In this document: one piece after another, positions 3,546 through 43,369 of the stretch | Layout: the number at the start of each line of letters is the position of its first letter | Numbering within the stretch: position 1 is the first letter of the stretch | Source of the DNA: Escherichia phage SSL-2009a | Direction: 5' to 3' (one strand) | Sequence record: NC_012223.2 | DNA length: 44,899 nt | Position numbers and translations under genes: made by a program | Notes under the pieces: generated by a model | What the model was told of the DNA's origin: nothing | The model's database searches: none | Seen by the model: only the letters and a program-made list of their open reading frames with translations

Positions 3546-4632
3546 TCAATATATGGCGGATCGAATGATTCGCCGTCACATCTTCACCCAGCGCCTGAGC
3601 AATGACCAGGCGCGAAGGGTGCTGTCCATGTGGGAGAAGTTCCGGCCCACATTACTGGGAAAGCTGACCGAGTTGCTTGATGGCAAATCGTCAATGAATA
3701 ACAGGGCACTTTCCACCCTGCTAACGCAAATCGACAAGACCGTTAAATCAGAATTGCGCACCGAGTTTAAGGCGTTGGCTGAAAGCCTTCAGGAGTTCGC
3801 CGACACGGAGGCTGATTATCTCACCGACACATTAACGGCAGCGATCCGGCCGGTGGTCGCCGTACCTGCGATCGAGGTGGTGGGCGTGGTGACAGGTGCG
3901 CAGATCGCAGCGACGGCAATGAAAAACCCGTTTCAGGGCAATACCCTGATGCAATGGCCCGATTCACTTTCAGAATGGACCAGGACGCAGATCGGCAATC
4001 AGGTGCGCGCGGGATTCATCCAGGGTAAGCCGACTATGGAAATTTTAGCGGACGTGAGGCGCGCGCTCGGCGGTCGTAGTGCGCAAGCTATCTCAAGCGT
4101 TGTTAAGTCCGCAGTCAACCACTATGCGGCGACCGCCCGCGAACTAATGGTAAAAGCAAATGACGATATTCTCGAAGGGCGCCAGTGGTTATCTACATTG
4201 GACACGCATACTTCTCCCATGTGCCAGCTACGCGATCGCCTGTTTTATCCAGTTGATGTTACTCCCGACACCAAAGGAAAGCGCGGCGGGAAAGTGGTGG
4301 CTGGATCACAATATGGCGCTGGTCCGGGCAAGCTGCATTATTGCTGCCGGTCTACGGAGACGTGGAAGGTTAAAGGCATGGAAGATTGGCCCAGTGGTAA
4401 GCGTCCGGCACTGAAGGCTGACGCTGGTCGATTGCTGAGTGAGCAGGTCGACGCGCAGACTGATTTCTTCTCATGGGTGCAGCGCCAGCCGCGCCATATC
4501 CTGGAAGAATTATACGGAGTGCAACGCGCCGACCAGATTATGCGCGGCGTGAAAGTGCCGAAGATGTTCACCGATTCAGGCGAACTAATGACTATTGCGC
4601 AGCTTAAAAACCGGGGGTTATGGCGTGATTAA
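3529..4632 (+). CDS. head morphogenesis protein (Mu F-like / SPP1 gp7-like minor head protein)
   Basis: 367 aa ORF overlapping the portal stop; position after portal; size and composition typical of F-like proteins. Confidence 0.6.
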   Translation: MAKTINQYMADRMIRRHIFTQRLSNDQARRVLSMWEKFRPTLLGKLTELLDGKSSMNNRALSTLLTQIDKTVKSELRTEFKALAESLQEFADTEADYLTDTLTAAIRPVVAVPAIEVVGVVTGAQIAATAMKNPFQGNTLMQWPDSLSEWTRTQIGNQVRAGFIQGKPTMEILADVRRALGGRSAQAISSVVKSAVNHYAATARELMVKANDDILEGRQWLSTLDTHTSPMCQLRDRLFYPVDVTPDTKGKRGGKVVAGSQYGAGPGKLHYCCRSTETWKVKGMEDWPSGKRPALKADAGRLLSEQVDAQTDFFSWVQRQPRHILEELYGVQRADQIMRGVKVPKMFTDSGELMTIAQLKNRGLWRD

Positions 4633-4954
4633 GTATGCGGCTATTGGACTGGTTATAGGTCTGGCGGTAGGATTCTGGCTTGGAGACTCCTATCGCGCTG
4701 GCGTAGTGGCTGAGGCGGCGCAAGAAGCGCAAGCCGAAGCCCAACGGCAGCAAACTAAAGTAATTGAGCGCTCCGTGCAGGCAGAACAAGCCCGCGACGT
4801 GGAATACCGGACTATCACAAAAGAGGTTGTAAAATATGTTACGCGCCCTAACCGCCCTGATTGTAGTTTTGACGCTGAGCGCGTGCGGATCAAGCAGCGT
4901 GCCGTTGATGCCGCTAACGGAGTCGGCACTGCGACCGCCGTGCAAGTTCGATAA
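4595..4954 (+). CDS. i-spanin (Rz-like), start uncertain (TTG 4595 or more likely GTG 4625)
   Basis: N-terminal TM segment YAAIGLVIGLAVGFWLG followed by charged coiled-coil-like periplasmic region; GTG 4625 preceded by GGGGG SD; contains the o-spanin ORF in the +1 frame. Confidence 0.6.
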   Translation: MRSLKTGGYGVIKYAAIGLVIGLAVGFWLGDSYRAGVVAEAAQEAQAEAQRQQTKVIERSVQAEQARDVEYRTITKEVVKYVTRPNRPDCSFDAERVRIKQRAVDAANGVGTATAVQVR

Positions 4955-6352: not shown

Positions 6353-7054
6353 ATGAAACTTACTAAAGCAGAATATGACGCGTTGCCAGAAGGCATGAAG
6401 GCTTTATTTGTTGCCGATGGTGATGGGTATAAATCCACGTTCATGACCGCCGAAGAAGTACAGGCGGAGATCAAGGGTCTGAAAGACAACAACGCGAAGC
6501 TGGTGAGCGAGAAGAAAGCAGAAGCCGAACGTCGCGCCGAAGCCGAGCGCCTTGCGAAAGAGAAAGAGGAAGCCGCCGCGCGCAAAAATGGCGACCTCGA
6601 AGCGATTGATAAATCCTGGAAGGATAAGTTCGCAAAACATGAAGCGGACACATCGGGGAAAATCGAAGCCTACCGCAAGCAGATCCACGACTTAACCATC
6701 GGCAGCGCTGCCAAAGATTTGGCCTCGAAGCTGTTCGGTAAGAATGCCGGCATCATGCAACGCCACGTTATGGACCGCCTCACGCTGGAAGACGGCGAGG
6801 ACGGCAGCTTGAAGGTGCGGGTACTGAAGGACGGCAAACCCTCCGCGCTGACTATGGAAGAACTAGAAAAAGAGTTCCGTAGTAACGCCGATTTTGCATC
6901 CGTCCTGGCTGGCACGCCAGCCGGTGGTGCTCCGAGCAAACCGACGCAGGTCGTCGAAGATGTGAAGTCGAAAATCACTATGGGACACAGCTTCGGTATC
7001 ACTGACTTGACGAAACAGGCCGGGGATATCATTGCTAAAATGGGCGACGAGTAA
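6353..7054 (+). CDS. scaffolding protein (putative)
   Basis: 233 aa from ATG 6353 (SD AGGGGGA); highly charged, predicted coiled coil (AEAERRAEAERLAKEKEEAAARK); immediately upstream of major capsid gene. Confidence 0.55.
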   Translation: MKLTKAEYDALPEGMKALFVADGDGYKSTFMTAEEVQAEIKGLKDNNAKLVSEKKAEAERRAEAERLAKEKEEAAARKNGDLEAIDKSWKDKFAKHEADTSGKIEAYRKQIHDLTIGSAAKDLASKLFGKNAGIMQRHVMDRLTLEDGEDGSLKVRVLKDGKPSALTMEELEKEFRSNADFASVLAGTPAGGAPSKPTQVVEDVKSKITMGHSFGITDLTKQAGDIIAKMGDE

Positions 7055-11073: not shown

Positions 11074-11103
11074 TTTGGTCGCTTAAATAGCGGGTGTTAA
11101 TAT

Positions 11104-11128
11104 GGGGCCAGTACGGCCCCTTTTTTTA
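11104..11128 (+). terminator. rho-independent terminator after major tail gene
   Basis: GGGGCC-agtac-GGCCCC followed by TTTTTTT. Confidence 0.65.
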
Positions 11129-12204: not shown

Positions 12205-14844
12205 ATGGCAGATCAGGCAGCGGGCATCACGCTCAAGGCGGACGTCGCGCAAATTAAAACGGCGAATACTGTGCTGGACACATTTGCGCAGAAATCCGAG
12301 AACACAGAACAGAAAGTAAAAAAATTAAACGACACCCTCGGCAAGTCGAAAAAGGTTACTGGCGACGCCGCGGGCGGAATGGAAAAGTTAGCGACTGAAT
12401 CGCAGCGCGCCGCCGACGGCATGACGAAACAGGAGCGACTAGCCAGCCGATTAGGCATGTCGACCAAAAACCTGGGATTCGCATCGCGGAACGCCGCATT
12501 CCAGTTACAGGATATCGCGGTTACGCTTGAGATGGGTATGCCGGTGCACCGCGTTATGCTTCAGCAGCTACCGCAGCTTACTGGGGCGTTTGGCGGACTG
12601 GGAAACACGCTGCGTTATGTCGTCGGCACACTCGGCCCGTTAGGGATCGGCATCGCTGCATTAACGGCAACGCTCGGCGTAGGGGTGGCAATTACGACCC
12701 GCGCAGAGAACCAGGTGGCGGCGCTTAATAAGACGCTGGCGCTGTCCGGTAATATTTCAGGCCTGACAGCTAACCAGATCCTTGTGCTGTCCGAGAACGC
12801 CGAGCGCATGGGCGGGTCATTTCGCAAGACGCGTGACACAATCCAGGCGCTGGCGGCGGCGGGTGTGAAAGCGGGTGGTGACTTTGGCGCATTGGCTAAG
12901 GTAGTGAATGACTTTGCGAAGGTGTCCAGCCAGCCGATCGAGGATGTGGTAGCGGCGGTGGCGAAGCTGTCAACCGACCCGGTAGGCGGCTTGCGCGCAC
13001 TGGCGGATAAGTATCACGTCGTAAACGAAGCGCAGATCCAGCAGGTACAGTCGCTGGTTGATGCGGGTCGTGAGACAGACGCAGTTGCGTTGGCTAACAA
13101 AACAGCCGCTGCGTCGTTCACCAGCATGACCAATGAGATCAAGGCGAACATGGGTACGCTTGAGCGGTCTATGAACGTCGTCACTTCGGCAGCTAAATCA
13201 ATGTGGGACGCTATCCTGGATGTGGGTCGCGCGCAGTCCTCCAATGAGTCTGAGATGAAAGCGCGCGAATCACTCCAGCGCATGACCACGGCGTACTATG
13301 CCGAGATGAAAGCGGTAAACGCAGCCGGTGGGGTAATGACTGAAGCGCAGAAAGCGCGTATTAACATGCTTTATAGCGAACTGGTCGCCCAGGAGAAAGT
13401 AGTAGCGTCGCTCACCCTGCGTAACCGTGCGGAGCGAGACAACGCCCGATCCGCAGACGAATCCGCAAAGGCGAACGAGGAGGCTAACCGCACCGCCCGC
13501 GACCGCGCTGCGTTCGAGAAGGAGTACGCAACCAACGCGAAGAAGCGCGCAGACGAGATCGCCCGCCTCAATTTGCTGAATAAGCGCGGCGTTATTGACG
13601 AGAAAGAGCTTGCTGAGGCGGTTAAGCAGGTAAACGAGCGTTACAAAGACCCGGCCCCGAAGAAGGCCGCGGCTGTTCGCGTGGATGCCGGTATGAAAAT
13701 GCTGGAAGTCGCACGGAGCGAACTGGCCCAGCTTCGAGAATCCGGCAAGCAGATCGAAGCCAACGCGTCTACGCAGACCCGCACGCAACGCGCGCAAGCG
13801 GCCTTAAACAAGCTGATCGCCGACAATGAGCAGTTAATTGCTGCGAGCAAAGAAAGAGCGCTAACGGCAGCAGAAAAGCAGCAGATGGTCGAATTCGGAC
13901 GCGTGAAGGAAGTGCGCGAGCAGATCGTCGAAGAAGCCAAATTGCTGGACGCGAAAGAGAAGCAGGTTAAGGCGCACGCGCAGATCGATGCCTTCGTTAA
14001 GAACCAGAACGCCGAACTAAAAGCCACCGCCGCGGGCTATGCGCTTTCCACTCGCGAAGCGGCAAACCTGCGCGAAGAATTGCAGTTAATCGACCGCCTG
14101 AAGCGTGTAGGCGCTAACGATACCGATATTGACAAGGCGGTGTCTAAGCTGCGGGAAGTGCAGGAGGCGCAGACCGGCGCTAACGCCTCGCTATGGGATG
14201 GATTCAGTCGCGGGCTTAAGGATAGCGTGGATGAAATGGGTAACGGATATACGCAGATGGCGTCGCTTACGAAATTCACATTCAGCGCTATGCAAGACAC
14301 GATGAACGAGTTTTTCGAGACTGGCAAGATTAACGCGAAGGATATGGTCAAATCCATCCTGAGCGAGTTAATCAAGCTGGCTACCTCGCAGGCGTTCAAG
14401 TCCATCGTTGGCGCTTTCGGTGGCGGCGGCAAAAACGGATTGTTCGGCGCTATCTTCTCGGGCCTCACTAAGAATGCGGACGGCGGAGCGTACGCAGGAG
14501 GCAATCTCGCGGCCTATTCGGGTAAGGTGGTAAGCCAGCCTACCTTTTTCAGTTATGGCGTCCAGGCGTTCGCTAAGGGCGCAGGATTGATGGGTGAGGC
14601 TGGACCCGAGGCCATCATGCCACTGAAGCGCGGGCCGGACGGGAAACTTGGCGTTGCCGCGTCGGGTGCGGGCGGTGGTATGGTCGTGACGACTAACGTT
14701 TACACTGGGGCCGGTAAAACAGACACCAGTGTGAGCGGCCCAGACCCCCGTACAGCGCAGGCGTTCGGCAAGCAAATCACCGAGGCGGTGAAGGCCGAGA
14801 TCGTGAAAGCGACGAAACCGGGTGGTGTACTTTACAAACGATGA
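12205..14844 (+). CDS. tail tape measure protein
   Basis: 879 aa, Ala/Gln/Lys-rich coiled-coil composition, glycine-rich C-terminal part; SD AGGGGGA; located after the G/G-T chaperone. Confidence 0.85.
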   Translation: MADQAAGITLKADVAQIKTANTVLDTFAQKSENTEQKVKKLNDTLGKSKKVTGDAAGGMEKLATESQRAADGMTKQERLASRLGMSTKNLGFASRNAAFQLQDIAVTLEMGMPVHRVMLQQLPQLTGAFGGLGNTLRYVVGTLGPLGIGIAALTATLGVGVAITTRAENQVAALNKTLALSGNISGLTANQILVLSENAERMGGSFRKTRDTIQALAAAGVKAGGDFGALAKVVNDFAKVSSQPIEDVVAAVAKLSTDPVGGLRALADKYHVVNEAQIQQVQSLVDAGRETDAVALANKTAAASFTSMTNEIKANMGTLERSMNVVTSAAKSMWDAILDVGRAQSSNESEMKARESLQRMTTAYYAEMKAVNAAGGVMTEAQKARINMLYSELVAQEKVVASLTLRNRAERDNARSADESAKANEEANRTARDRAAFEKEYATNAKKRADEIARLNLLNKRGVIDEKELAEAVKQVNERYKDPAPKKAAAVRVDAGMKMLEVARSELAQLRESGKQIEANASTQTRTQRAQAALNKLIADNEQLIAASKERALTAAEKQQMVEFGRVKEVREQIVEEAKLLDAKEKQVKAHAQIDAFVKNQNAELKATAAGYALSTREAANLREELQLIDRLKRVGANDTDIDKAVSKLREVQEAQTGANASLWDGFSRGLKDSVDEMGNGYTQMASLTKFTFSAMQDTMNEFFETGKINAKDMVKSILSELIKLATSQAFKSIVGAFGGGGKNGLFGAIFSGLTKNADGGAYAGGNLAAYSGKVVSQPTFFSYGVQAFAKGAGLMGEAGPEAIMPLKRGPDGKLGVAASGAGGGMVVTTNVYTGAGKTDTSVSGPDPRTAQAFGKQITEAVKAEIVKATKPGGVLYKR

Positions 14845-14851
14845 TAAAATG

Positions 14852-14880
14852 GCCTCCACATCCATCGTGGGGGCTTTTCT
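14852..14880 (+). terminator. intrinsic terminator-like hairpin after tape measure gene
   Basis: 8-bp stem (one G-U) 14852-14874 followed by CTTTTCT; abuts ATG 14881. Confidence 0.4.
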
Positions 14881-15480
14881 ATGGCACAAGGTACAATCAC
14901 ACTAACGAACGGAAGTAAGACCGTCACGGGTGCGGGGACGGCGTTCTTGAGCGAGGTCGGGAAGGTCCGCGTATTCGCCCGCATCGACGGCAACGACTAC
15001 ACCGGAAAAATTGCGGCATTCAACTCTAACACCGTCATCACCCTGGCGGATAACTGGGCAGGCCCGACAAAAGCCGGTGCGGCTTATGAGTTAATCGAAG
15101 CGCACGACCCGCGGTCAAACGAATGGCCCTATTACTGGCACATGCAATTGCAAGGCGGCGGCGACGTGCAGTTGGCTTTCCGGTCCGAGGAATTGCAATT
15201 CGGTAACGGCTACGGTCAGAACATCGCGGACGGCCCGAACGCCGAAACGAAACAGTTCCCCGTGCAATTCATAGGACTGACTACCGACAAGTGGTGCAAT
15301 CCCAAACTGGTTTACAACTTCCTTCGCGGGCACTTCGTCACGCCGTTTGTCGTCACCGCGCCGGATGGCGAAACCGGTTTATTCGTGGTCGAGCGTTCGA
15401 GCTTGTCGTACACTGACAACGGGCACTACACGGCAACGGTATCCGCCACCCTTAAGACTGCTATTGGATTCGTAAGATGA
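14881..15480 (+). CDS. minor tail protein (lambda gpM-like)
   Basis: 199 aa, first gene after tape measure; M/L/K/I/J-like gene order and sizes. Confidence 0.7.
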   Translation: MAQGTITLTNGSKTVTGAGTAFLSEVGKVRVFARIDGNDYTGKIAAFNSNTVITLADNWAGPTKAGAAYELIEAHDPRSNEWPYYWHMQLQGGGDVQLAFRSEELQFGNGYGQNIADGPNAETKQFPVQFIGLTTDKWCNPKLVYNFLRGHFVTPFVVTAPDGETGLFVVERSSLSYTDNGHYTATVSATLKTAIGFVR

Positions 15481-20600: not shown

Positions 20601-21032
20601 AACGCCACATACAGCCTTAAGGCGGGCGTGACGTATAACGGGACTTACTATGATGCCGGTATGCAGCTTTCCGTCGTGGCGGAAGGCGGCGCGGTTAAAT
20701 CCCGTATAGCGTTCAAAGCGGACCAGTTCTATATCATGCACCCGTCTAACGGCACGCTGTCGTCTGCGTTTATCGTCGACGGTGGGGCGGTGTATATCGA
20801 CACAGCGCGCATCAAGGACGCGACTATTAACTTCGCGCAGATCACGGACACGCTGCAATCGAATAACTATGACGGCAACACGCGTGGTTGGCGCTTAGGG
20901 AAAGAGGGGACGTTTATCAACCTGGGAACCGGTAACGGCGGCGGGATGAAACAGACGAACACGCAAATCAGCGTTAGGGACGGAAACGGCGTGCTCCGCG
21001 TGCAGCTTGGAGAACTCACAGGTAGTTGGTAG
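17613..21032 (+). CDS. central tail fiber / host specificity protein (lambda gpJ-like)
   Basis: 1139 aa, ATGA overlap with upstream gene; size and position typical for J. Confidence 0.8.
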   Translation: MTIIYDVTGHKGGGGKQHTPQETPDSLHSLAKIRILLALGEGEFEGITSASELRQRVYLDGTPIQNADLSENFPGARVEFRPGTQHQDVIHGFSAVESEQSVGVKLENGTPWVRQINDTSLDAVRIRIGIPALYTNEDNGDLVGGRIDYKIVVYTDNADPREFTFAAVGKTMSLYERDHRIELPPNVNTGWRVEVHRITADSTSAKVVNDIRVQSITEIIDARLRYPLTALLFVEFDAKAFQNIPRVSIKCKGRKVLIPNNYDPINHTYSGDWDGTFKRAWTDNPAWHWYDICITERFGLGRRIKPQMLNRYALYQIAQRCDQLVSDGNGGREIRFKNDMYIQSQTDAWTVLKDLAAIFAGMTWWGNQMLNIVSDQPVAAVSHTITNASVIDGRFDYASGSQKTRYSTFAVAYGNPKNHYDDAIATGQRVELVRRHKINRLDITAIGCTRESEAQRRGHWALISNQLDQQVSFKVGMEGLFFIPGSVVAIADTNISGGFETRGGRLLSDPGTRTVLNTDSEITFRPGDKFLVRTDSGNVETREIASVNGNKVTLKTALDADPIPDQPFCVDGDDIQLQKFRITDLEYDDSTSTFSVRGIEYNDSKYDAVDNGARLDPGIFTQVPDGVMKGPESVTITPSQISSQGQLITNVDIVFPPVKDAVVYEIQWRRTSLQNMEIQWGNDWVNIPRTASNGAHIPNVFSGNYQARVRAIGMGEISSPWVSSAITPVEGRLGGLNAPIITNAISGLHQILWKWNHNNAATDISYTELEVRKTGETEWKFLTNVPYPGAEYAQTSLEFGIYQQLRARVADKIGNLSDWSAPFEGQVSDKVDEYMKGLDDEFLTSEDGKHFQEAINTIPQGIYESMLTDAQQMFNARAEYKGIYAEIKVAYNVAADAHKAVAQLETLIGTRLDDAEAAIHTLQTAQSTHEQAFAQYQQTVAAKFGEQEAAIQQVQTATADVAGALAEYKTQVAAQFGQQSAAIEQKMTSTFNHAGGNATYSLKAGVTYNGTYYDAGMQLSVVAEGGAVKSRIAFKADQFYIMHPSNGTLSSAFIVDGGAVYIDTARIKDATINFAQITDTLQSNNYDGNTRGWRLGKEGTFINLGTGNGGGMKQTNTQISVRDGNGVLRVQLGELTGSW

Positions 21033-21036
21033 CATA

Positions 21037-21058
21037 GGGGCTTCGGCCCCATTCTTTT
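21037..21058 (+). terminator. rho-independent terminator after J-like gene
   Basis: GGGGC-ttcg-GCCCC followed by ATTCTTTT. Confidence 0.6.
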
Positions 21059-36992: not shown

Positions 36993-37322
36993 ATGAATAT
37001 CAACGACGCAATCGAAATGTTAACTAAGACTGTTTGCAGTGAGACTAGCCGGTCGTGGGCTTATACCGATGCCGTTGGGGCGGTGCTATTTGAGGTCGAG
37101 CGCCTGCGCAGTGTAGAAAAAGAATTACGCGCCAGGCTGGAATTGCTCAACGGTACAGCGGCGAGCAAGCTGCAGAAGCACAATGAAGAAATGGAAGAAT
37201 ATAAAAAACAGGTTATCAGTTTGCGCGCCGAGGGCAAATCCTGGGCGATGATTGCCGAGTTGACCGGAATTAATCAGAGCACAGTGCGCTCCTGGGTACG
37301 CAATAATAAAACTTCTAAGTAA
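36993..37322 (+). CDS. helix-turn-helix DNA-binding protein (putative transcriptional regulator)
   Basis: 109 aa, SD GGAGA; C-terminal HTH-like segment SWAMIAELTGINQSTVRSWV. Confidence 0.55.
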   Translation: MNINDAIEMLTKTVCSETSRSWAYTDAVGAVLFEVERLRSVEKELRARLELLNGTAASKLQKHNEEMEEYKKQVISLRAEGKSWAMIAELTGINQSTVRSWVRNNKTSK

Positions 37323-37332
37323 GGTCACGGCA

Positions 37333-39597
37333 ATGAGCTTAATTAAATTCGCTGTAACAAGACCCGCTAAAAAAGGCGAAAAAGCCAGGGCGGAAAACTT
37401 CCAGATGACTACCGAAGAGTTTTTCGAATTTATCAATGATGCGAAAGAAATCTCCTCGGTGCATATCAACAAAACGGAAGATAAAGCCGAGTATGCACGC
37501 CGCAAGCGTAAGGCCGACGGCATCGTGGCGTATACCAGTGACGGATTGCGTCGCAAGACCAGTGCGGTGGACCGCTCGATCCTGTTCTTCGATATTGACC
37601 GTACTGACACCCGCACCCTACGCCGCTGCCGTAAGGCGTTCACCGACGCGGGACTGGAGCACGTCTTCCACACCACAACCGGCGACCGTCACCCACTGAA
37701 AGGTGGAACGCGTTGCGCTCGCTTCCTTGTGTTGACCGACAAGCCTGTACCGGCTGAAGACCTGGGCCGTGTCCAGTATGCGCTATTACACCAACTGGGC
37801 CTGTCAGACGTGGACTTCGACGACTGCACGAAAGACACAAACCGCCTTATGTACCTGCCACACCAGCAGTCTGTTATTAAGTGCCACTATGGCAAGCGCG
37901 CCCGCGTCCGTCGTCTGCTCCGCCAGGCTGACAAGCTGGGAGTTGAGAAAGAGGAAGTCCGCCGCGAACTGACCCAGGGCGACGACGCAGTGGCAGACGG
38001 CATTCTGGACTGGTGCTTCCAGGCAGGATTCGAGGAGTTATCTTCCGGTCGCGGTTATGAAGTGCCGTGCCCGAACGAACATCTGCACAGCGGCGAAGGG
38101 TCAACGGCTATCATGGTCAAGGATGGCGAGATCCGTTTCAAGTGTATGCACACCGGCAACGAGTGTTGCTCGGAACTGAATAGACACCAGCACCTGGCGC
38201 TACGTCTTATAGGTATCCCGGACCACCTGAACGTCGAGCCACACAATATGTCCCGTAAGCAAATCGCCGCCATCCTGCCGGGGTTGGACGACGAGGAGGT
38301 CGAATCCTTATACGAACATATTGTTGATGCGGTTGGTGACGGCGAAGAATACGGCGTGTGCACCGATGCGGATCTGGATAACGAGCCGGTCGCACTATTC
38401 AGTAAGCACGACCCGATTATCGAGGGGTTGATTAACTTTAAATCGACCTGGTATCTCGCCGGTGAGTCGAACATTGGTAAGTCTTTCTATGTGCTGGGGC
38501 AAATGGCGTCAGTATCTGCCGGTATTCCGTTTGGGGGGGCGAAGGTCGTCCAGTGCCACAACTTCTATTTCGATGCGGAAGGTGGCGAAGCCTCAAATCA
38601 GCGTAAAGAAGCATTGCAGATTAAATACGAGCACGACCTGGACAAGCTGCACATTATCGATCTGCAATCACGCGGCTGGGATATCACCAGCAAATCCGGC
38701 TTGCGCGAAGTTATCAGCTTCATCAACCGCACCGCTAACGGCGAACCAGTTGGCCTGGTGGCGTTCGACTCACTCAACCAGACTGTTGCGCTGCGGTCCG
38801 CCGATGCTAAACCGTTTGACGAGAACAACGCCAGCGATATGGGTGAAGTGGTCAAAGCGCTGAAAGCCATTGCGGAAAATACAGGTGGCAGTGCTGGCGT
38901 CATCCACCACCCGGCGAAAGGTGCAAACGGCAGCAGAACCCCACGCGGATCCGGTGCGCTGCATGGTGCTGTCGATTCAGCTTTCTTCCTGGAACAGCCA
39001 GACGACAACCAGCCAGGCCAATTGAACCTGTATCACGAAAAGTCACGTAACGGCATCAAGCAAGCGCCGCGTGGCTTCGTCCTGCTCAAGTGCAAGGTGA
39101 AGGTAGATCTCCGCAAGTCGGAAGCGTTCGCGTCGCACCAGTCCACCAGCACCGGGCCGGACTTCGGCGACGTCGTTGCCGGTTGGGACGTCAAACCAAT
39201 TGCGTCCACGCCACGCGACGAGACTCTATACCTCGTACCGGTCGCCCTGGCACCGTTCGCTATAGAACAGGCGAAGGCCGCAGGGAAAGCCGCAGTTAAG
39301 GAAGAGAACACCGCAGGACCGCGCAACGAAAAAGAGAAAGTGCTTTATGCGGCCCTGGAAAAACTGATGGAAGATAACCCGGACCATACTGGATTCAGTA
39401 AATCGGCAATCGTCCGCCAGGCGGGACTCGCGAAGGGGGGCACTTCGACGAAGGCAATCGACGATATGGTCGAGCGCGGCGTGATTGGTTTCTATACAGA
39501 TCCGCACACCGGGGCCATCTATGGGTCGTCGAATTTAGTTATCAAATCGGATATCCCCATTACGCTTTCGGCGACCGATGACGACCTGAAAGATTAA
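37333..39597 (+). CDS. DNA primase/helicase-type replication protein (P-loop ATPase with zinc-binding region)
   Basis: 754 aa; Cys/His cluster CPNEHLHSGEG...FKCMHTGNECC; Walker A GESNIGKS and Walker B-like LVAFDSLNQ; immediately followed by iteron locus B. Confidence 0.7.
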   Translation: MSLIKFAVTRPAKKGEKARAENFQMTTEEFFEFINDAKEISSVHINKTEDKAEYARRKRKADGIVAYTSDGLRRKTSAVDRSILFFDIDRTDTRTLRRCRKAFTDAGLEHVFHTTTGDRHPLKGGTRCARFLVLTDKPVPAEDLGRVQYALLHQLGLSDVDFDDCTKDTNRLMYLPHQQSVIKCHYGKRARVRRLLRQADKLGVEKEEVRRELTQGDDAVADGILDWCFQAGFEELSSGRGYEVPCPNEHLHSGEGSTAIMVKDGEIRFKCMHTGNECCSELNRHQHLALRLIGIPDHLNVEPHNMSRKQIAAILPGLDDEEVESLYEHIVDAVGDGEEYGVCTDADLDNEPVALFSKHDPIIEGLINFKSTWYLAGESNIGKSFYVLGQMASVSAGIPFGGAKVVQCHNFYFDAEGGEASNQRKEALQIKYEHDLDKLHIIDLQSRGWDITSKSGLREVISFINRTANGEPVGLVAFDSLNQTVALRSADAKPFDENNASDMGEVVKALKAIAENTGGSAGVIHHPAKGANGSRTPRGSGALHGAVDSAFFLEQPDDNQPGQLNLYHEKSRNGIKQAPRGFVLLKCKVKVDLRKSEAFASHQSTSTGPDFGDVVAGWDVKPIASTPRDETLYLVPVALAPFAIEQAKAAGKAAVKEENTAGPRNEKEKVLYAALEKLMEDNPDHTGFSKSAIVRQAGLAKGGTSTKAIDDMVERGVIGFYTDPHTGAIYGSSNLVIKSDIPITLSATDDDLKD

Positions 39598-39607
39598 ATT
39601 TTGCGCG

Positions 39608-39653
39608 CATTGGTTGCCATTTTGTGTGCTTTTAGCTGGTCGCATTGGTTGCC
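39608..39653 (+). promoter_or_regulatory. two direct CATTGGTTGCC motifs downstream of the primase gene
   Basis: Copies at 39608-39618 and 39643-39653 (35-bp spacing), directly upstream of iteron locus B. Confidence 0.4.
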
Positions 39654-39699
39654 GTGTAGTGTAAATATAGTGCATAGTTATGCAATAAAACTGCATAAA

Positions 39700-39860
39700 G
39701 TAAGCGGGACAAAAAGCGGGACAAACCAGGGGCGGGACAAAGCGGGACAGCACCCCTGTCCCACCCCGGATGACGCGGCCTGGCGGGGAGCGGGACAGGC
39801 GGGACAACTCCCAGTCTTTCAGACTAGACGGGGGTCAGCGGCCCCCCTCGTCTGAGACTG
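39700..39860. repeat. iteron/palindrome-rich element B (second copy of the 150-bp GCGGGACA element; putative origin-associated)
   Basis: Six direct GCGGGACA units, one GGGACAG-cacccc-CTGTCCC palindrome, and the same terminal hairpin as locus A; near-identical to 11978-12137. Confidence 0.7.
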
Positions 39861-40014
39861 CATAAAATCCGGGATTGCAAAATACACGGCAGCATGTTGC
39901 GGATTGCGGTCGTCGCTGAACTAGGCAACCAATGCGAGTTGCAGAACGGTGGGTGGGAAATGCAGTTTGCAGTCACAGCAGATAGCGATCAACTTTTTCA
40001 TGCGCATGATTAAT

Positions 40015-40055
40015 ATTGGTTGCATTCGTGCCAGCACCCTGCTAGATTGGTTGCA
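40015..40055 (+). promoter_or_regulatory. candidate promoter/operator (ATTGGTTGCAT as -35, TAGATT -10, second ATTGGTTGCA over -10/+1)
   Basis: TTGCAT 40020-40025, 17 nt, TAGATT 40043-40048; second motif copy 40046-40055; SD GAGGA 40065-40069; ATG 40077. Confidence 0.5.
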
Positions 40056-40076
40056 CACCAACATGAGGACTGAACA

Positions 40077-40367
40077 ATGAAAAAATTAATCTGGAATTAC
40101 GCAATGGCCCTGGCGAAGCTGGTTGAAGTTAAACACACACACGGCAGCGCACCCGAGGCGCGCCAGGTAGCTCCGACCTGGTATGCGATCATGAACGCGA
40201 CCGCGGACCTGAAAGACCCAGAACCGCTGCGCATGGCTATCCGGGTCTACGCGATGGCATTTGCCCGTGAGCGCATGGCGTATCGCTTCGGGGTCGGTGA
40301 GACGGCAGCGGCAAACGTCGCCCGGATTGCAGCCCAACGTGAGCTATTCGCCCAGCTTGCAAAATAA
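40077..40367 (+). CDS. hypothetical early protein
   Basis: 96 aa, SD GAGGA 7 nt upstream; first gene after the origin-like region. Confidence 0.5.
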   Translation: MKKLIWNYAMALAKLVEVKHTHGSAPEARQVAPTWYAIMNATADLKDPEPLRMAIRVYAMAFARERMAYRFGVGETAAANVARIAAQRELFAQLAK

Positions 40368-40376
40368 GGGGCCAAA

Positions 40377-40646
40377 ATGGACCGCAGACGCGCGAAACAG
40401 CTTTCGTGGCATATTCCACTGCATTGCGTACGAATGTGGGCTAAGAATGCGTCTGAGGGCGATTCTGTGTTCTGGAGCTATCGCGACGACGTTAAGCCGT
40501 TGACGCAGACTCGCTACTTGCACCAGTTCGCCGCGCAACATGATTTCTATGTGCGGACCTCCTTGCAACCAATGGGGATCCGTATTACATTACGCCGGAA
40601 GCCCGCAGTCGAGCGGGTAGGCAAACACTGGAGACTGAGCAAATGA
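40377..40646 (+). CDS. hypothetical early protein
   Basis: 89 aa, SD AAGGGG; basic (Arg/His-rich). Confidence 0.45.
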   Translation: MDRRRAKQLSWHIPLHCVRMWAKNASEGDSVFWSYRDDVKPLTQTRYLHQFAAQHDFYVRTSLQPMGIRITLRRKPAVERVGKHWRLSK

Positions 40647-40786
40647 CACCAGCACTAATGGCGGGATTCTCGCAGAAGTTTATTTCTGTTGATGCCTGCA
40701 TAGCAGATTATGAGATGGACGGCATCGCTACTGTGTGCGATGGCGACACGAAAACTGCCGACGAGATTGAGGAGACAGAACAATGA
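40643..40786 (+). CDS. hypothetical small acidic protein (47 aa)
   Basis: ATGA overlaps with both neighbours, SD GGAGA 8 nt upstream; found by manual translation (below ORF-track cut-off). Confidence 0.4.
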   Translation: MTPALMAGFSQKFISVDACIADYEMDGIATVCDGDTKTADEIEETEQ

Positions 40787-41400
40787 AATTACTATTCCGC
40801 CGCAAGCATGATGGTCGCATCCTGAAGCCGATCCAGACCCTGGATTCCTACGTCCGCTTACAAAACGCGGCAGGCAATCGGGTGTGGCGGGCGCCGAAAC
40901 ACACGCTGCCGCAGTTCTTCGACGTACTCACTCACGATATCGAGCGCGGCGATGTGCTGCGTGATATTCGCGACGGCAGTATGTGGGTCGTCGAGTATGT
41001 CGGGCTTCATGGCCTGCGTATGCAAAACCGCAAGGATGGCGTCGCCGGTATGACTTACTTCGGCCTCGTAAATTACGAGCGAGTGGGTCGCAAATACAGC
41101 CTTCGTGACCGCCAGCCGCACGAGCGCGCGAACGTCATAGCGGATGCCGTTAACCGCGTAACGCATGATGTGGCGCAAAAGACGCGTGTGGAGTTCCGCA
41201 AGTCACAGCCAGCCTATGCAACCTATGACGCGAGCAAAGTGATGGATCCGATACGCCAGGCGACGCATGCGATTATTAATCGCTTTGATGCCGTGACGAA
41301 TGCACAGCGCCATGCGCAGGAATACGGTTTTGGATTCATCCGGGTGGAACGAGACGGCAGCATGAAAGCCATCGACCCGCGCTCGGTGATTCTGAAATGA
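40783..41400 (+). CDS. hypothetical protein
   Basis: 205 aa, SD GAGGAGA; no motif recognised. Confidence 0.5.
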   Translation: MKLLFRRKHDGRILKPIQTLDSYVRLQNAAGNRVWRAPKHTLPQFFDVLTHDIERGDVLRDIRDGSMWVVEYVGLHGLRMQNRKDGVAGMTYFGLVNYERVGRKYSLRDRQPHERANVIADAVNRVTHDVAQKTRVEFRKSQPAYATYDASKVMDPIRQATHAIINRFDAVTNAQRHAQEYGFGFIRVERDGSMKAIDPRSVILK

Positions 41401-41537
41401 GTGCGACGACCCGTGATATGCTTCAGCACAACCGCTTTGAGATAGGCGGTCGGGTGTTTCGCAATTACTTCGTGGCGCGTGCATGGGCGCGCCATATTGG
41501 CAAACCGGAAGGGGCAATTCGATGTTACACGATGTGA
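41397..41537 (+). CDS. hypothetical small protein (46 aa, speculative)
   Basis: ATGA overlap with upstream gene; overlaps the start of the next gene. Confidence 0.3.
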   Translation: MSATTRDMLQHNRFEIGGRVFRNYFVARAWARHIGKPEGAIRCYTM

Positions 41538-41809
41538 TTTATTGGTTTGGTTTGATCGGGGGGCTGTGCCTGCTTACTGCGGTGCTGTTGGGCGTCCTGT
41601 TATTCGTAGCATGGCCCGCCGTGGAAGCCGCCAGCATTACCCGCATGACGTTCGAAATATACAAGCGCCGTGGAATCACGGAGCACCCAACCAGGTTGCG
41701 CATGTGGTGGCTGTGGTATCGGGATATGATAGGCGGGCGAACATTCGAAGCCGTCCGATCATCCGGGTGGGAGTGGAAAGGCGTCGGCAAGTGGTCCGTT
41801 TTCGATTAA
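41522..41809 (+). CDS. membrane protein (lysis-cassette-associated, function unknown)
   Basis: 95 aa from ATG 41522 (SD AAGGGG); one N-terminal TM helix and Trp-rich C-terminal part. Confidence 0.45.
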   Translation: MLHDVIYWFGLIGGLCLLTAVLLGVLLFVAWPAVEAASITRMTFEIYKRRGITEHPTRLRMWWLWYRDMIGGRTFEAVRSSGWEWKGVGKWSVFD

Positions 41810-41826
41810 TTATGCAAGCGTGATAT

Positions 41827-41862
41827 AGTCCCAGTGAGCTAAAACTTACTGGGACTTTTTTA
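41827..41862 (+). terminator. strong intrinsic terminator abutting the holin start codon
   Basis: Perfect 9-bp stem AGTCCCAGT/ACTGGGACT with 11-nt loop, then TTTTTTA running directly into ATG 41862. Confidence 0.55.
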
Positions 41863-42152
41863 TGGATAAGCTAAACGAGTGGCTATTCGCCCTGGCATGT
41901 CTGGCGGGTGGCTTCGTAGGCGCACGCATTCATGGTGAGGCTACGAAGGGGCCGCTAAACTTCGTTTTGTATGTGGTAGTCGGCTTCCTGTGTGCCATAT
42001 TTGGCGCACCGGCTATTGCCGAGTGGGCTGGTTTGTCGGGTGAGCGCACTGTCGCCGGTTTGGGCTTCGTAACCGCAATCTTCTGGATGCCAATCGCCGA
42101 CCGGATCAGGGAGACTATTGCGTCGTTCCGACTTCCGGGGGGTGCAAAATGA
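41862..42152 (+). CDS. holin-like membrane protein
   Basis: 96 aa with about three hydrophobic helices; immediately upstream of a second membrane protein and the endolysin. Confidence 0.5.
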   Translation: MDKLNEWLFALACLAGGFVGARIHGEATKGPLNFVLYVVVGFLCAIFGAPAIAEWAGLSGERTVAGLGFVTAIFWMPIADRIRETIASFRLPGGAK

Positions 42153-42394
42153 TTATCTCCGTCCTGTTGTTTGTTATCATCGGGGCTTCGTCCCTGTTTA
42201 ACGTGTATGCGCCGTCCGTCCAGGATGGCATTTTCGGTCGGGTGCTGTATCTGCTAACGGCAATGATCTGTATTATCGGACTGTTGCAAACAGGAGACGT
42301 ATCTGATACCACCTGGACCGCGTTAATCTGGCTGTTTGCATTGCGCACCCTGCGTAATGCTGTTTTGAATGGGGTAAAACATGCGATTCAGTGA
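42149..42394 (+). CDS. holin/antiholin-like membrane protein
   Basis: 81 aa, two to three TM helices; ATGA overlap upstream, overlaps endolysin start. Confidence 0.45.
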   Translation: MIISVLLFVIIGASSLFNVYAPSVQDGIFGRVLYLLTAMICIIGLLQTGDVSDTTWTALIWLFALRTLRNAVLNGVKHAIQ

Positions 42395-42872
42395 CAACGG
42401 TCTAAGATTCACGGCAGCATGGGAGGCTTTCAGCCCGGTGCCGTATTTCGCGACCAAGAAAGAGCAGGCCCGCGGCCTGTACACCTGGGGTTATGGTCAT
42501 ACCGGCACTAACCCGCCGCGAAGCATTACCCGAGAGGAAGCGCTGGCGCTACTTAAGCGCGATGTGGCGTATGCCGAGGACTGGGTTAACAAATACGCAC
42601 ATCCGAGCATTAACCAGGCGCAATTCGACGCGCTGGTGGATCTGGTAATCAATGCCGGTCCTGGTCCGATCGTACCGGATGACGTCGCGAATGATTTCGA
42701 TGATGCGGTGCGACTGGGCAACTGGGCGAAGGTCCGTGCTACGCTGCCGCTGTTCCGCAAGCAAGGCGGGGAAGTGCTTAAGGGTCTGGTACGCCGTGCA
42801 ATCGGCAGACAGGCGTTGTTTGATGGTAAGCAGTGGGACGTTGCCGAGCGAATCGGTCGTAACGCTGCATAA
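42381..42872 (+). CDS. endolysin (phage lysozyme, T4-lysozyme-like fold)
   Basis: 163 aa; conserved Glu (WEAF) followed by GLYTWGYGHTG, resembling the E...GYYTIGIGH signature of T4-type lysozymes. Confidence 0.65.
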   Translation: MRFSDNGLRFTAAWEAFSPVPYFATKKEQARGLYTWGYGHTGTNPPRSITREEALALLKRDVAYAEDWVNKYAHPSINQAQFDALVDLVINAGPGPIVPDDVANDFDDAVRLGNWAKVRATLPLFRKQGGEVLKGLVRRAIGRQALFDGKQWDVAERIGRNAA

Positions 42873-42888
42873 TACGAGGTGACACAAT

Positions 42889-43290
42889 ATGTTAGATTCG
42901 ATCTTGCGACGTAAAGAACGCATTATCAAGACACTGCCCGCAGTGCAGAACCCAGAAGCGCGCCGCATCCTGGCGGGGGATATGAATGTATCAGGCGTCT
43001 TTGACAAGGCCGTGCCTGAAGGGACGCCGGTGGCTAGCGCTACCGTCACCATCACGCCAGCTACCGCCGCAGTTGGTGAGACAGCCGCCGCGACTGTTGC
43101 CATCCTGCCATCCGGAGCGACCAACAAGACCGGGTCGTGGGTGTCGGCTAACCCTAACCGCGCCTCAATCAATCCGACTACCGGAGAAATCACAGCGAAA
43201 GCAGCGGGTAACGTCCGCATCGTTTGGGTGGCGTCCGACGGTAGCGGGGTGCAGGCTGACGCAGGCTTCACAGTAACGGCAGCCGCATAA
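42889..43290 (+). CDS. Ig-like (Big_2-type) domain protein
   Basis: 133 aa; C-terminal region rich in T/A/V/G (ATVTITPATAAVGETAAATVAILPSGATNKTG...GNVRIVWVASDG); SD GAGGTGA. Confidence 0.45.
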   Translation: MLDSILRRKERIIKTLPAVQNPEARRILAGDMNVSGVFDKAVPEGTPVASATVTITPATAAVGETAAATVAILPSGATNKTGSWVSANPNRASINPTTGEITAKAAGNVRIVWVASDGSGVQADAGFTVTAAA

Positions 43291-43297
43291 ACCAACA

Positions 43298-43324
43298 AGC
43301 CCGGATAATACCGGGCTTTTTATT
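43298..43324 (+). terminator. rho-independent terminator after Ig-like gene
   Basis: GCCCGG-ataata-CCGGGC followed by TTTTTATT. Confidence 0.6.
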
Positions 43325-43331
43325 GCTTGAC

Positions 43332-43369
43332 TTGCAACCAACATAGGGGCCATACTGCAACCAACCAAT
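43332..43369. promoter_or_regulatory. two TGCAACCAA motif copies (reverse orientation)
   Basis: ttgcaaccaa 43332-43341 and tgcaaccaaccaat 43356-43369, just upstream of the micro-ORF SD. Confidence 0.4.

Follow-up and report, generated by a model that had tools for sequence, protein, structure and literature searches.

A conserved leader hairpin masks the holin start in Dhillonviruses and overlaps a promoter-like element

The window analysed here is the whole 44,899-nt stretch of Escherichia phage SSL-2009a (NC_012223.2), a Dhillonvirus (HK578-like siphophage of E. coli). About 150 Escherichia and Shigella siphophages of this genus, such as HK578, JL1, EP23 and SO-1, matched the region with 83-98% identity, and gene starts in the window were transferred by tblastn from the Dhillonvirus Ioannina. 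On the + strand, a helicase-primase gene and an operon of small genes (40077-41809) are followed by a hairpin, a holin gene, a second holin-like gene, an endolysin gene, an Ig-like gene and a two-way terminator (Table 1). The protein encoded from 41862 is a putative holin: it is a small membrane protein, it matches a holin family (phrog_2359, E = 8.5e-32), and an endolysin (PF00959) is encoded two genes further downstream. The holin stop codon overlaps the start codon of the next gene (ATGA), which suggests translational coupling between the two. The moment of lysis is determined by holin synthesis, and an infection in which holin is made too early is lost.

Table 1 Features of the holin locus and of the comparable terminator sites in the window.
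Feature	Position	Strand	Basis or remark
TTGGTC, 17 nt, TGTTAATAT, then terminator hairpin 11104-11120, after major tail gene	11075..11120	+	
Second copy of the lock design: TGATAAAAT, 9-bp hairpin 14851-14875, TTTCT, ATG 14881	14842..14883	+	
TGGTAGCAT, then terminator hairpin 21037-21050, after 1139-aa tail fibre gene	21027..21050	+	
Small membrane protein, phrog_2531	41522..41809	+	final gene of the operon upstream of the hairpin
Weak -35-like TTTCGA, 18-nt spacer to -10-like hexamer	41800..41805	+	crude PWM scan, consensus match
Extended -10-like element TGATATAGT (TG, one free base, TATAGT)	41821..41829	+	consensus, PWM, conservation
Hairpin 5' arm, AGTCCCAGTGAG	41827..41838	+	sequence, terminator scan, folding
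Hairpin loop CTAAAA, variable among relatives	41839..41844	+	locus comparison
Hairpin 3' arm, CTTACTGGGACT, with the only SD-like bases (GGGA 41851-41854)	41845..41856	+	sequence, folding
Unpaired T-run (six T including T41856), ending at the start codon	41857..41861	+	sequence, terminator scan
Holin-family gene, 96 aa, phrog_2359	41862..42152	+	holin annotation in relatives
Second holin/antiholin-like gene, 81 aa, phrog_2508	42149..42394	+	PHROG match
Endolysin, Phage_lysozyme PF00959	42381..42872	+	Pfam match
Ig-like (Big_2) protein	42889..43290	+	last gene ahead of the next terminator
Two-way terminator closing the lysis cassette, AAGCCCGG...CCGGGCTT	43297..43318	.	terminator scan

The gene upstream of the hairpin ends with a TAA stop codon at 41807-41809, which leaves a gap of 17 nt to the stem. 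The stem is formed by perfect 9-bp pairing of AGTCCCAGT (41827-41835) with ACTGGGACT (41848-41856) and lengthens inward by G.U, A-U and G-C pairs to 12 bp (41827-41838 / 41845-41856). Six T residues (41856-41861, five of them unpaired) are followed at once by the ATG at 41862-41864. A previous sequence-only reading had described a stem and U-run abutting this ATG, with the only SD-like stretch inside the 3' arm, and both observations held, GGGA, 7 nt from the ATG, being the sole purine cluster at positions -20 to -1 of the holin gene. The predicted folding energy was -19.3 kcal/mol for the hairpin alone and -24.8 kcal/mol in a 71-nt context (z = -5.2), a value equalled by none of 200 shuffled sequences. 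The same reading had also offered a downstream holin start as an alternative, which found no support, as the next in-frame TTG or GTG lies about 35 codons into the gene and its use would remove the first transmembrane segment. Upstream, there is an in-frame TGA at 41835-41837, with no ATG, GTG or TTG between it and 41862, and the N-terminus MDK... aligns with the start of the homologues in Kagunavirus. These observations identify ATG 41862 as the start, with no usable alternative on either side.

The holin hairpin was the strongest + strand site of the region in a terminator scan (12 pairs, 6 of them G-C, loop of 6 nt), and its TransTermHP-style tail score was -4.88, compared with -4.0 to -5.8 at the other terminators of the genome. 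It combines a stable G+C-containing stem, a short loop and an adjoining U-run, and on this sequence form it is probably a transcription terminator. Relatives WF5505, WFI and PTXU06 have it marked in their GenBank records simply as a 'putative transcriptional terminator', so the terminator itself is not new. No Rfam 15 family reached its gathering score at the hairpin; the best, NsiR1 (29.3 bits against a cut-off of 39), was a generic hairpin-plus-U-tail match. The plain annotation in related records and the density of phage genomes would both suit an ordinary terminator, for which the short distance to the ATG and an overlapping weak SD would be by-products of compaction with no regulatory role. 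Against this, the other terminators in the window leave space for a separate strong canonical SD downstream, for example ttttttatAGGAGtgaatgaaATG, with the hairpin at 14851-14875 as the exception.

Occlusion of ribosome-binding sites, measured as the energy needed to unpair positions -16 to +2 of each start, set the holin apart. The window holin start required 19.1 kcal/mol, the highest of 48 starts evaluated (median of 38 mapped starts, 5.3), and the holin start likewise ranked first among 55 starts in Ioannina (21.9 kcal/mol, median 5.6) and among 47 in the Kagunavirus K1G (16.1 kcal/mol, median 6.4). Being the top occlusion outlier in three genomes is difficult to reconcile with an ordinary terminator. 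The start of the phrog_2508 gene is also occluded (12.3 kcal/mol). From these calculations, the masking of the holin SD appears to be real and selected, and looks non-accidental; a hairpin this stable, together with a weak SD, should silence the holin on RNA bearing both arms. Judging from known ribosome footprints, a ribosome terminating at the upstream stop probably stays too distant, at 17 nt, to open the stem. The proposal of the sequence-only reading that the hairpin is melted on read-through RNA was also not borne out, as the helix is predicted at -19 kcal/mol and the initiation region would cost about 19-21 kcal/mol to open. RNA beginning inside the hairpin gave a very different prediction: for a start at 41836, the cost of opening positions -18 to +12 fell from 21.0 kcal/mol with both arms to 4.9, and that of opening the SD was 1.8 kcal/mol versus 11.6 on long transcripts.

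Each of the 20 unique Dhillonvirus loci that we examined has the holin hairpin, as do additional metagenome contigs. In the genes flanking it, 76-83% of third codon positions varied among these 20 loci, whereas variation ahead of the hairpin was confined to 3 of 17 positions and that within the 3' arm to 2 of 12, and the 5 T-run positions were invariant. The intergenic hairpin region is far more conserved than synonymous sites and is under purifying selection. The seeming variation of the 5' arm stems from a 1-nt insertion in two divergent Ioannina-type genomes (about 70% identity in the region), which carry AGTCCCCAGTGAG...CTTACTGGGGCT; to match the additional C of their 5' arm, an A in the 3' arm has become G, and here too the T-run reaches the ATG. 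Changes that break one hairpin pair were seen in single genomes (welsh, SO-1 and WF5505). We disfavoured the reading of the inverted repeat as a protein operator, since G.U-compatible variation (G41836.T41847, the A-to-G change in Kagunavirus, and T.G variants at the 14851 site) suits RNA pairing better.

Holin homologues with 46% identity occur in Kagunavirus (K1G, Snoke, RP180 and about 25 sequence variants), and their leaders carry a hairpin at the same place, with ATCCTCCAG, a loop of 19-22 nt and CTGGAGGAT forming a 9-bp stem. It ends 5 nt before the TTG start, the same distance that separates the Dhillonvirus stem from the ATG. The Kagunavirus 3' arm is a perfect SD (GGAGGA), its 5' arm mimics the anti-SD, and TCATC takes the place of the U-run (tail score -2.76). 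Between the two genera the stem has covaried: of the 9 pairs, 4 or 6 have both partners replaced, according to the placement of the 1-nt length difference, and all are still Watson-Crick; the count was tabulated by script in two explicit registers, since this indel shifts the 5' and 3' arms out of register in a MAFFT alignment. As Kagunavirus keeps the hairpin, the -6 geometry and the SD in the arm while lacking the U-run, masking is conserved and not only termination, which leaves the ordinary-terminator explanation very improbable in our view. The genes upstream of the hairpin, including the phrog_2531 gene, are not homologous between the two genera, which assigns the conserved block to the holin cassette. 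Yet another stem, TCCCCGGA/TTCGGGGA, is found in KW1E-type phages; its 3' arm contains GGGGA, and a T8 run abuts the ATG. More distant homologues (MED16, Amjad_SA and Wc4) have an upstream hairpin or terminator with the SD exposed, and a metagenome scan for more clades with the hairpin returned the same two clades only. About 10 nt ahead of the holin hairpin, Kagunavirus leaders have a further, small hairpin that is also conserved, AGGATAATTCCT (or AAGATAATTCCT; 39545-39556 in the K1G record).

Comparison with promoter consensus sequences revealed an element that overlaps the 5' arm. TGATATAGT matches the extended -10 consensus TGnTATAAT at five of six hexamer positions plus the TG, and its final 3 nt are the first 3 nt of the hairpin 5' arm. 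In a rough self-made PWM it was the best-scoring site of the holin leader in the window (rank 20 of 89,746), Ioannina (9 of 90,470) and K1G (36 of 87,104); the exact sequence TGNTATAGT occurs twice in the window. TGATATAGT is invariant across all Dhillonvirus loci, including those of about 70% identity. The Kagunavirus counterpart is TG[G/C]TATCCT, and among the variants seen only the 'n' of TGn was polymorphic. The predicted start is G41836 or A41837, about 7 nt past the hexamer, which would give a leader of about 25 nt without the 5' arm. Drawbacks of the candidate are its weak -35 (3/6; TTCAGA at this position in Ioannina) and the G+C-rich discriminator CCCAGT, and folding indicated that part of the conserved CGTGA could instead pair with UUAUG as a lower helix. 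An upstream promoter at a conserved (A/T)TAATT box (GATAAT in Kagunavirus) was rejected as the main reading, because the box contains the upstream stop codon in Dhillonvirus and Snoke-type Kagunavirus, its -35 is unconserved and its PWM rank was 586-735; with transcription from there, the RNA would begin with the hairpin, as it does in lambda pR'-tR'. For an arrangement of the lambdoid pR'-tR' type, no Q-like antiterminator was found among the proteins adjacent to the hairpin by Pfam and PHROG, which gave these proteins no function.

The reading that we favour, with confidence slightly short of even, is that a terminator, a translational lock and an embedded promoter are combined at the 5' border of the lysis cassette. 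On RNA from the upstream operon, the hairpin would act as a Rho-independent terminator and end the transcript at about the holin AUG. In any RNA that carried both arms, a -19 kcal/mol helix ending 5 nt ahead of the AUG would tie up the SD-bearing 3' arm and leave the holin untranslated; the phrog_2508 gene, probably coupled to the holin through the ATGA, would be silent too. The productive lysis mRNA would start at G41836 or A41837 from the candidate sigma70 extended -10 promoter TGATATAGT, and since it would lack the 5' arm, it would neither terminate nor mask its own SD. The sequence-only reading appears incomplete in this respect, as it overlooked the extended -10-like element overlapping the 5' arm that would allow hairpin-free mRNA, and a start within the hairpin is a likelier origin of the productive mRNA than melting. 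Its idea of the hairpin as a timing device for lysis is plausible. A plain sigma70 promoter alone leaves late timing unexplained, and this counts against the full model. In Dhillonvirus the terminator already blocks most read-through by this model, which makes the translational lock partly redundant. A search of the literature found no maps of transcript 5' or 3' ends for Dhillonvirus or Kagunavirus.

Slow holin build-up and delayed lysis could also result from a leaky terminator with a translational throttle, in which the cassette has no promoter of its own and initiation on read-through RNA is rare. Ribosomes would enter through breathing of the stem, standby binding on flanking A/U-rich stretches, or SD-independent binding of S1 to the U-run. 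The terminator form and the SD masking on which this explanation builds are both real, the AUG and following codons are A/U-rich and unpaired in the hairpin fold, and the Kagunavirus GGAGGA is a very strong SD that could compete with a -14 kcal/mol hairpin. The same design also stands before the tail gene at 14881 in a long operon, where low-level read-through translation would be expected. With about 19-21 kcal/mol to open and only a weak GGGA, however, essentially no initiation is predicted at equilibrium, and two successive improbable steps, read-through and opening, would leave an essential function very weakly expressed. Nor does a throttle explain the conserved TG-n-TA-nnn-T with its free 'n' or its recurrence at the terminators 11104 and 21037, and we regard this explanation as rather unlikely. 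A further point in its favour comes from lambda, in which translation initiation of the holin gene S is also controlled by a stem-loop at the 5' end of the gene, sdi (PMC3359269). The lambda sdi splits ribosomes between two starts (Met1-Lys2-Met3) and is not a terminator, whereas the holin here has a single start (MDKLNEW), and so its hairpin is not a lambda sdi element.

Alternatively, a phage or host factor might open or bypass the hairpin late in infection, and candidates would be a Com-like RNA-binding translational activator, an antiterminator that alters folding, or endonucleolytic removal of the 5' arm. It is established that Com opens the sequestered start of Mu mom, and the holin resembles mom as a harmful late gene whose start region is locked in a hairpin. 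Mu requires the Com protein to open the mom hairpin, whereas no Com-like factor was identified for the holin hairpin, and Q-, N- and Com-like domains were absent from the neighbouring proteins by Pfam and PHROG. Unmasking in trans would agree with the extreme lock and its conservation in two genera, with the many small proteins encoded just upstream whose function is unknown, and with the sigma70 region-4-like HTH of an early 109-aa protein. Weighing against it, the genes upstream of the hairpin differ between Dhillonvirus and Kagunavirus, a 12-bp stem is short for RNase III, and no candidate binding motif was identified apart from the promoter-like one. We consider such a factor improbable.

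The combination of terminator, lock and embedded promoter has its closest counterpart in T4, where the starts of e (lysozyme), soc, 49 and I-TevI are buried on long early transcripts and late promoters lie inside the hairpin-coding DNA (PMC3014915). As with T4 gene e, the holin is a lysis gene with its SD and start held in a leader hairpin on upstream transcripts, and a candidate promoter would shed the 5' strand. Two differences are apparent. T4 late promoters are gp55-dependent (TATAAATA, which is absent from 41780-41862), whereas the candidate here is a host sigma70 extended -10; and the Dhillonvirus hairpin has a U-run and should also end upstream transcripts, a terminator role that the T4 hairpin lacks. 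By this comparison, the holin element would work like the T4 gene e family without being a member of it, the phage being no relative of T4. The late region of T1 has been described as a set of 'transcriptons', terminator-flanked modules that contain RpoD promoters (PMC11447400). The holin site resembles them in its G+C-rich stem, its U-run and its position after an operon, and differs from them in that the promoter-like element overlaps the 5' arm and the 3' arm is the SD of the next gene. This overlap of a probable terminator and a promoter-like element goes further than the T1 layout, and would be the known trick of T4 lysozyme in a more compact form.

Similar arrangements were found at other terminators of the window. 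The motif TGNTANNNT has 63 copies in the window, four of which, at 11095, 14842, 21027 and 41821, leave a gap of 0-2 nt to the G+C-rich stem of a downstream + strand terminator (the holin copy precedes the CCC core). In a test designed after the motif had been seen at the holin site, it was present at 4 of 25 terminator-like hairpins in the window with 0.30 expected (P = 2.6e-4; P = 0.003 without the holin site). In Ioannina it was present at 4 of 20 (P about 2e-4), which is not an independent test, given the homology of Ioannina and the window. K1G had it at none of 12 canonical terminators. The TGA at 14842 and the TAG at 21030 double as stop codons, and A/T-rich flanks are common at terminators, both of which qualify the association.

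Among these sites, the one at 11095 looks from its sequence like the best-supported example of a promoter abutting a terminator. Fourteen unique Dhillonvirus loci share a common non-coding block there that starts exactly at TTGGTC and continues with 17 nt, TG[T/A]TAA[T/C]AT and the hairpin; only the 'n' positions vary, changes in the stem are compensatory, and the block is kept where the gene upstream differs. At the 14851 hairpin, the 3' arm GTGGGGGCT holds the only SD-like bases before ATG 14881, the start of the first tail gene after the tape measure gene, for which the opening cost was 18.1 kcal/mol. Its stem was kept with wobble or compensatory changes in 13 unique loci, and the relative L083 has kept the hairpin and lost the T-run. 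The gene at 14881 lies inside a long tail operon and does not obviously need a new promoter, which speaks against the full model. Behind the terminators 11104 and 21037, the next gene has its own exposed SD. Possibly, though we incline to doubt it, Dhillonviruses use 'self-bypassing terminators' with a sigma70 extended -10 in or against the 5' arm, at no fewer than four sites here (11095, 14842, 21027 and 41821). Polymerase arriving from upstream would stop at them and polymerase starting within the hairpin would escape, and the holin and 14881 hairpins would in addition lock the SD of the next gene. On this reading, about 45 nt would supply a mobile lysis cassette with an insulator, a promoter and a safety catch, and lysis could be timed in part by upstream polymerases that cross the embedded promoter and hold back its firing.

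If the full model is true, a siphophage that is virulent, and in which no RNA polymerase or sigma factor was recognised here, keeps its lethal cassette silent on foreign read-through RNA and expresses it from about 45 nt. The principle of T4 gene e would then extend to host sigma70 promoters and true terminators, and phage engineering and synthetic biology would gain a compact natural 'terminator + promoter + translational lock' part. Annotators may take the site as a warning that a 'terminator' before a gene may conceal the promoter and ribosome site of that gene. Should the model fail, there would still be two phage genera in which a leader hairpin masks the start of the holin gene, a clear and conserved case.

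Several smaller features of the window and of K1G were also noted. The two-way terminator at 43297-43318 is followed within 9 nt by a promoter-like TTGACT-18-CATACT (43327-43356), so that 43297-43356 has the ordinary serial layout of terminator then promoter, as against the overlapping layout at the holin. In K1G, a perfect TATAAT lies 1 nt before the terminator after the major capsid gene (stem starting at 7010). The region 39598-40076, about 480 nt without a convincing gene, ends in a strong promoter-like TTGCAT-17-TAGATT with TG (-10 hexamer at 40043) just ahead of the gene at 40077. The rightward early operon opens with the gene (36993-37322) for the 109-aa protein with the Sigma70 region-4-like/HTH match (PF08281, 27.4 bits), which from this match may be a phage transcription regulator. 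Recognisable spanin genes are absent from the lysis cassette, where an Ig-like Big_2 gene (42889-43290) follows the endolysin. A small head-region ORF (4595-4954) is the counterpart of an Ioannina ORF annotated with a lipoprotein attachment site, and the K1G spanins are placed among head genes; taken together, these observations suggest that the spanin may be encoded elsewhere. Within the 3' end of the second holin-like gene there is also a 10-bp hairpin (GCATTGCGCACCCTGCGTAATGC, then TGTTTTGAAT; 42338-42360), about 20 nt ahead of the endolysin start at 42381 and with an Ioannina counterpart at 42748, which could attenuate transcription internally or regulate endolysin translation.
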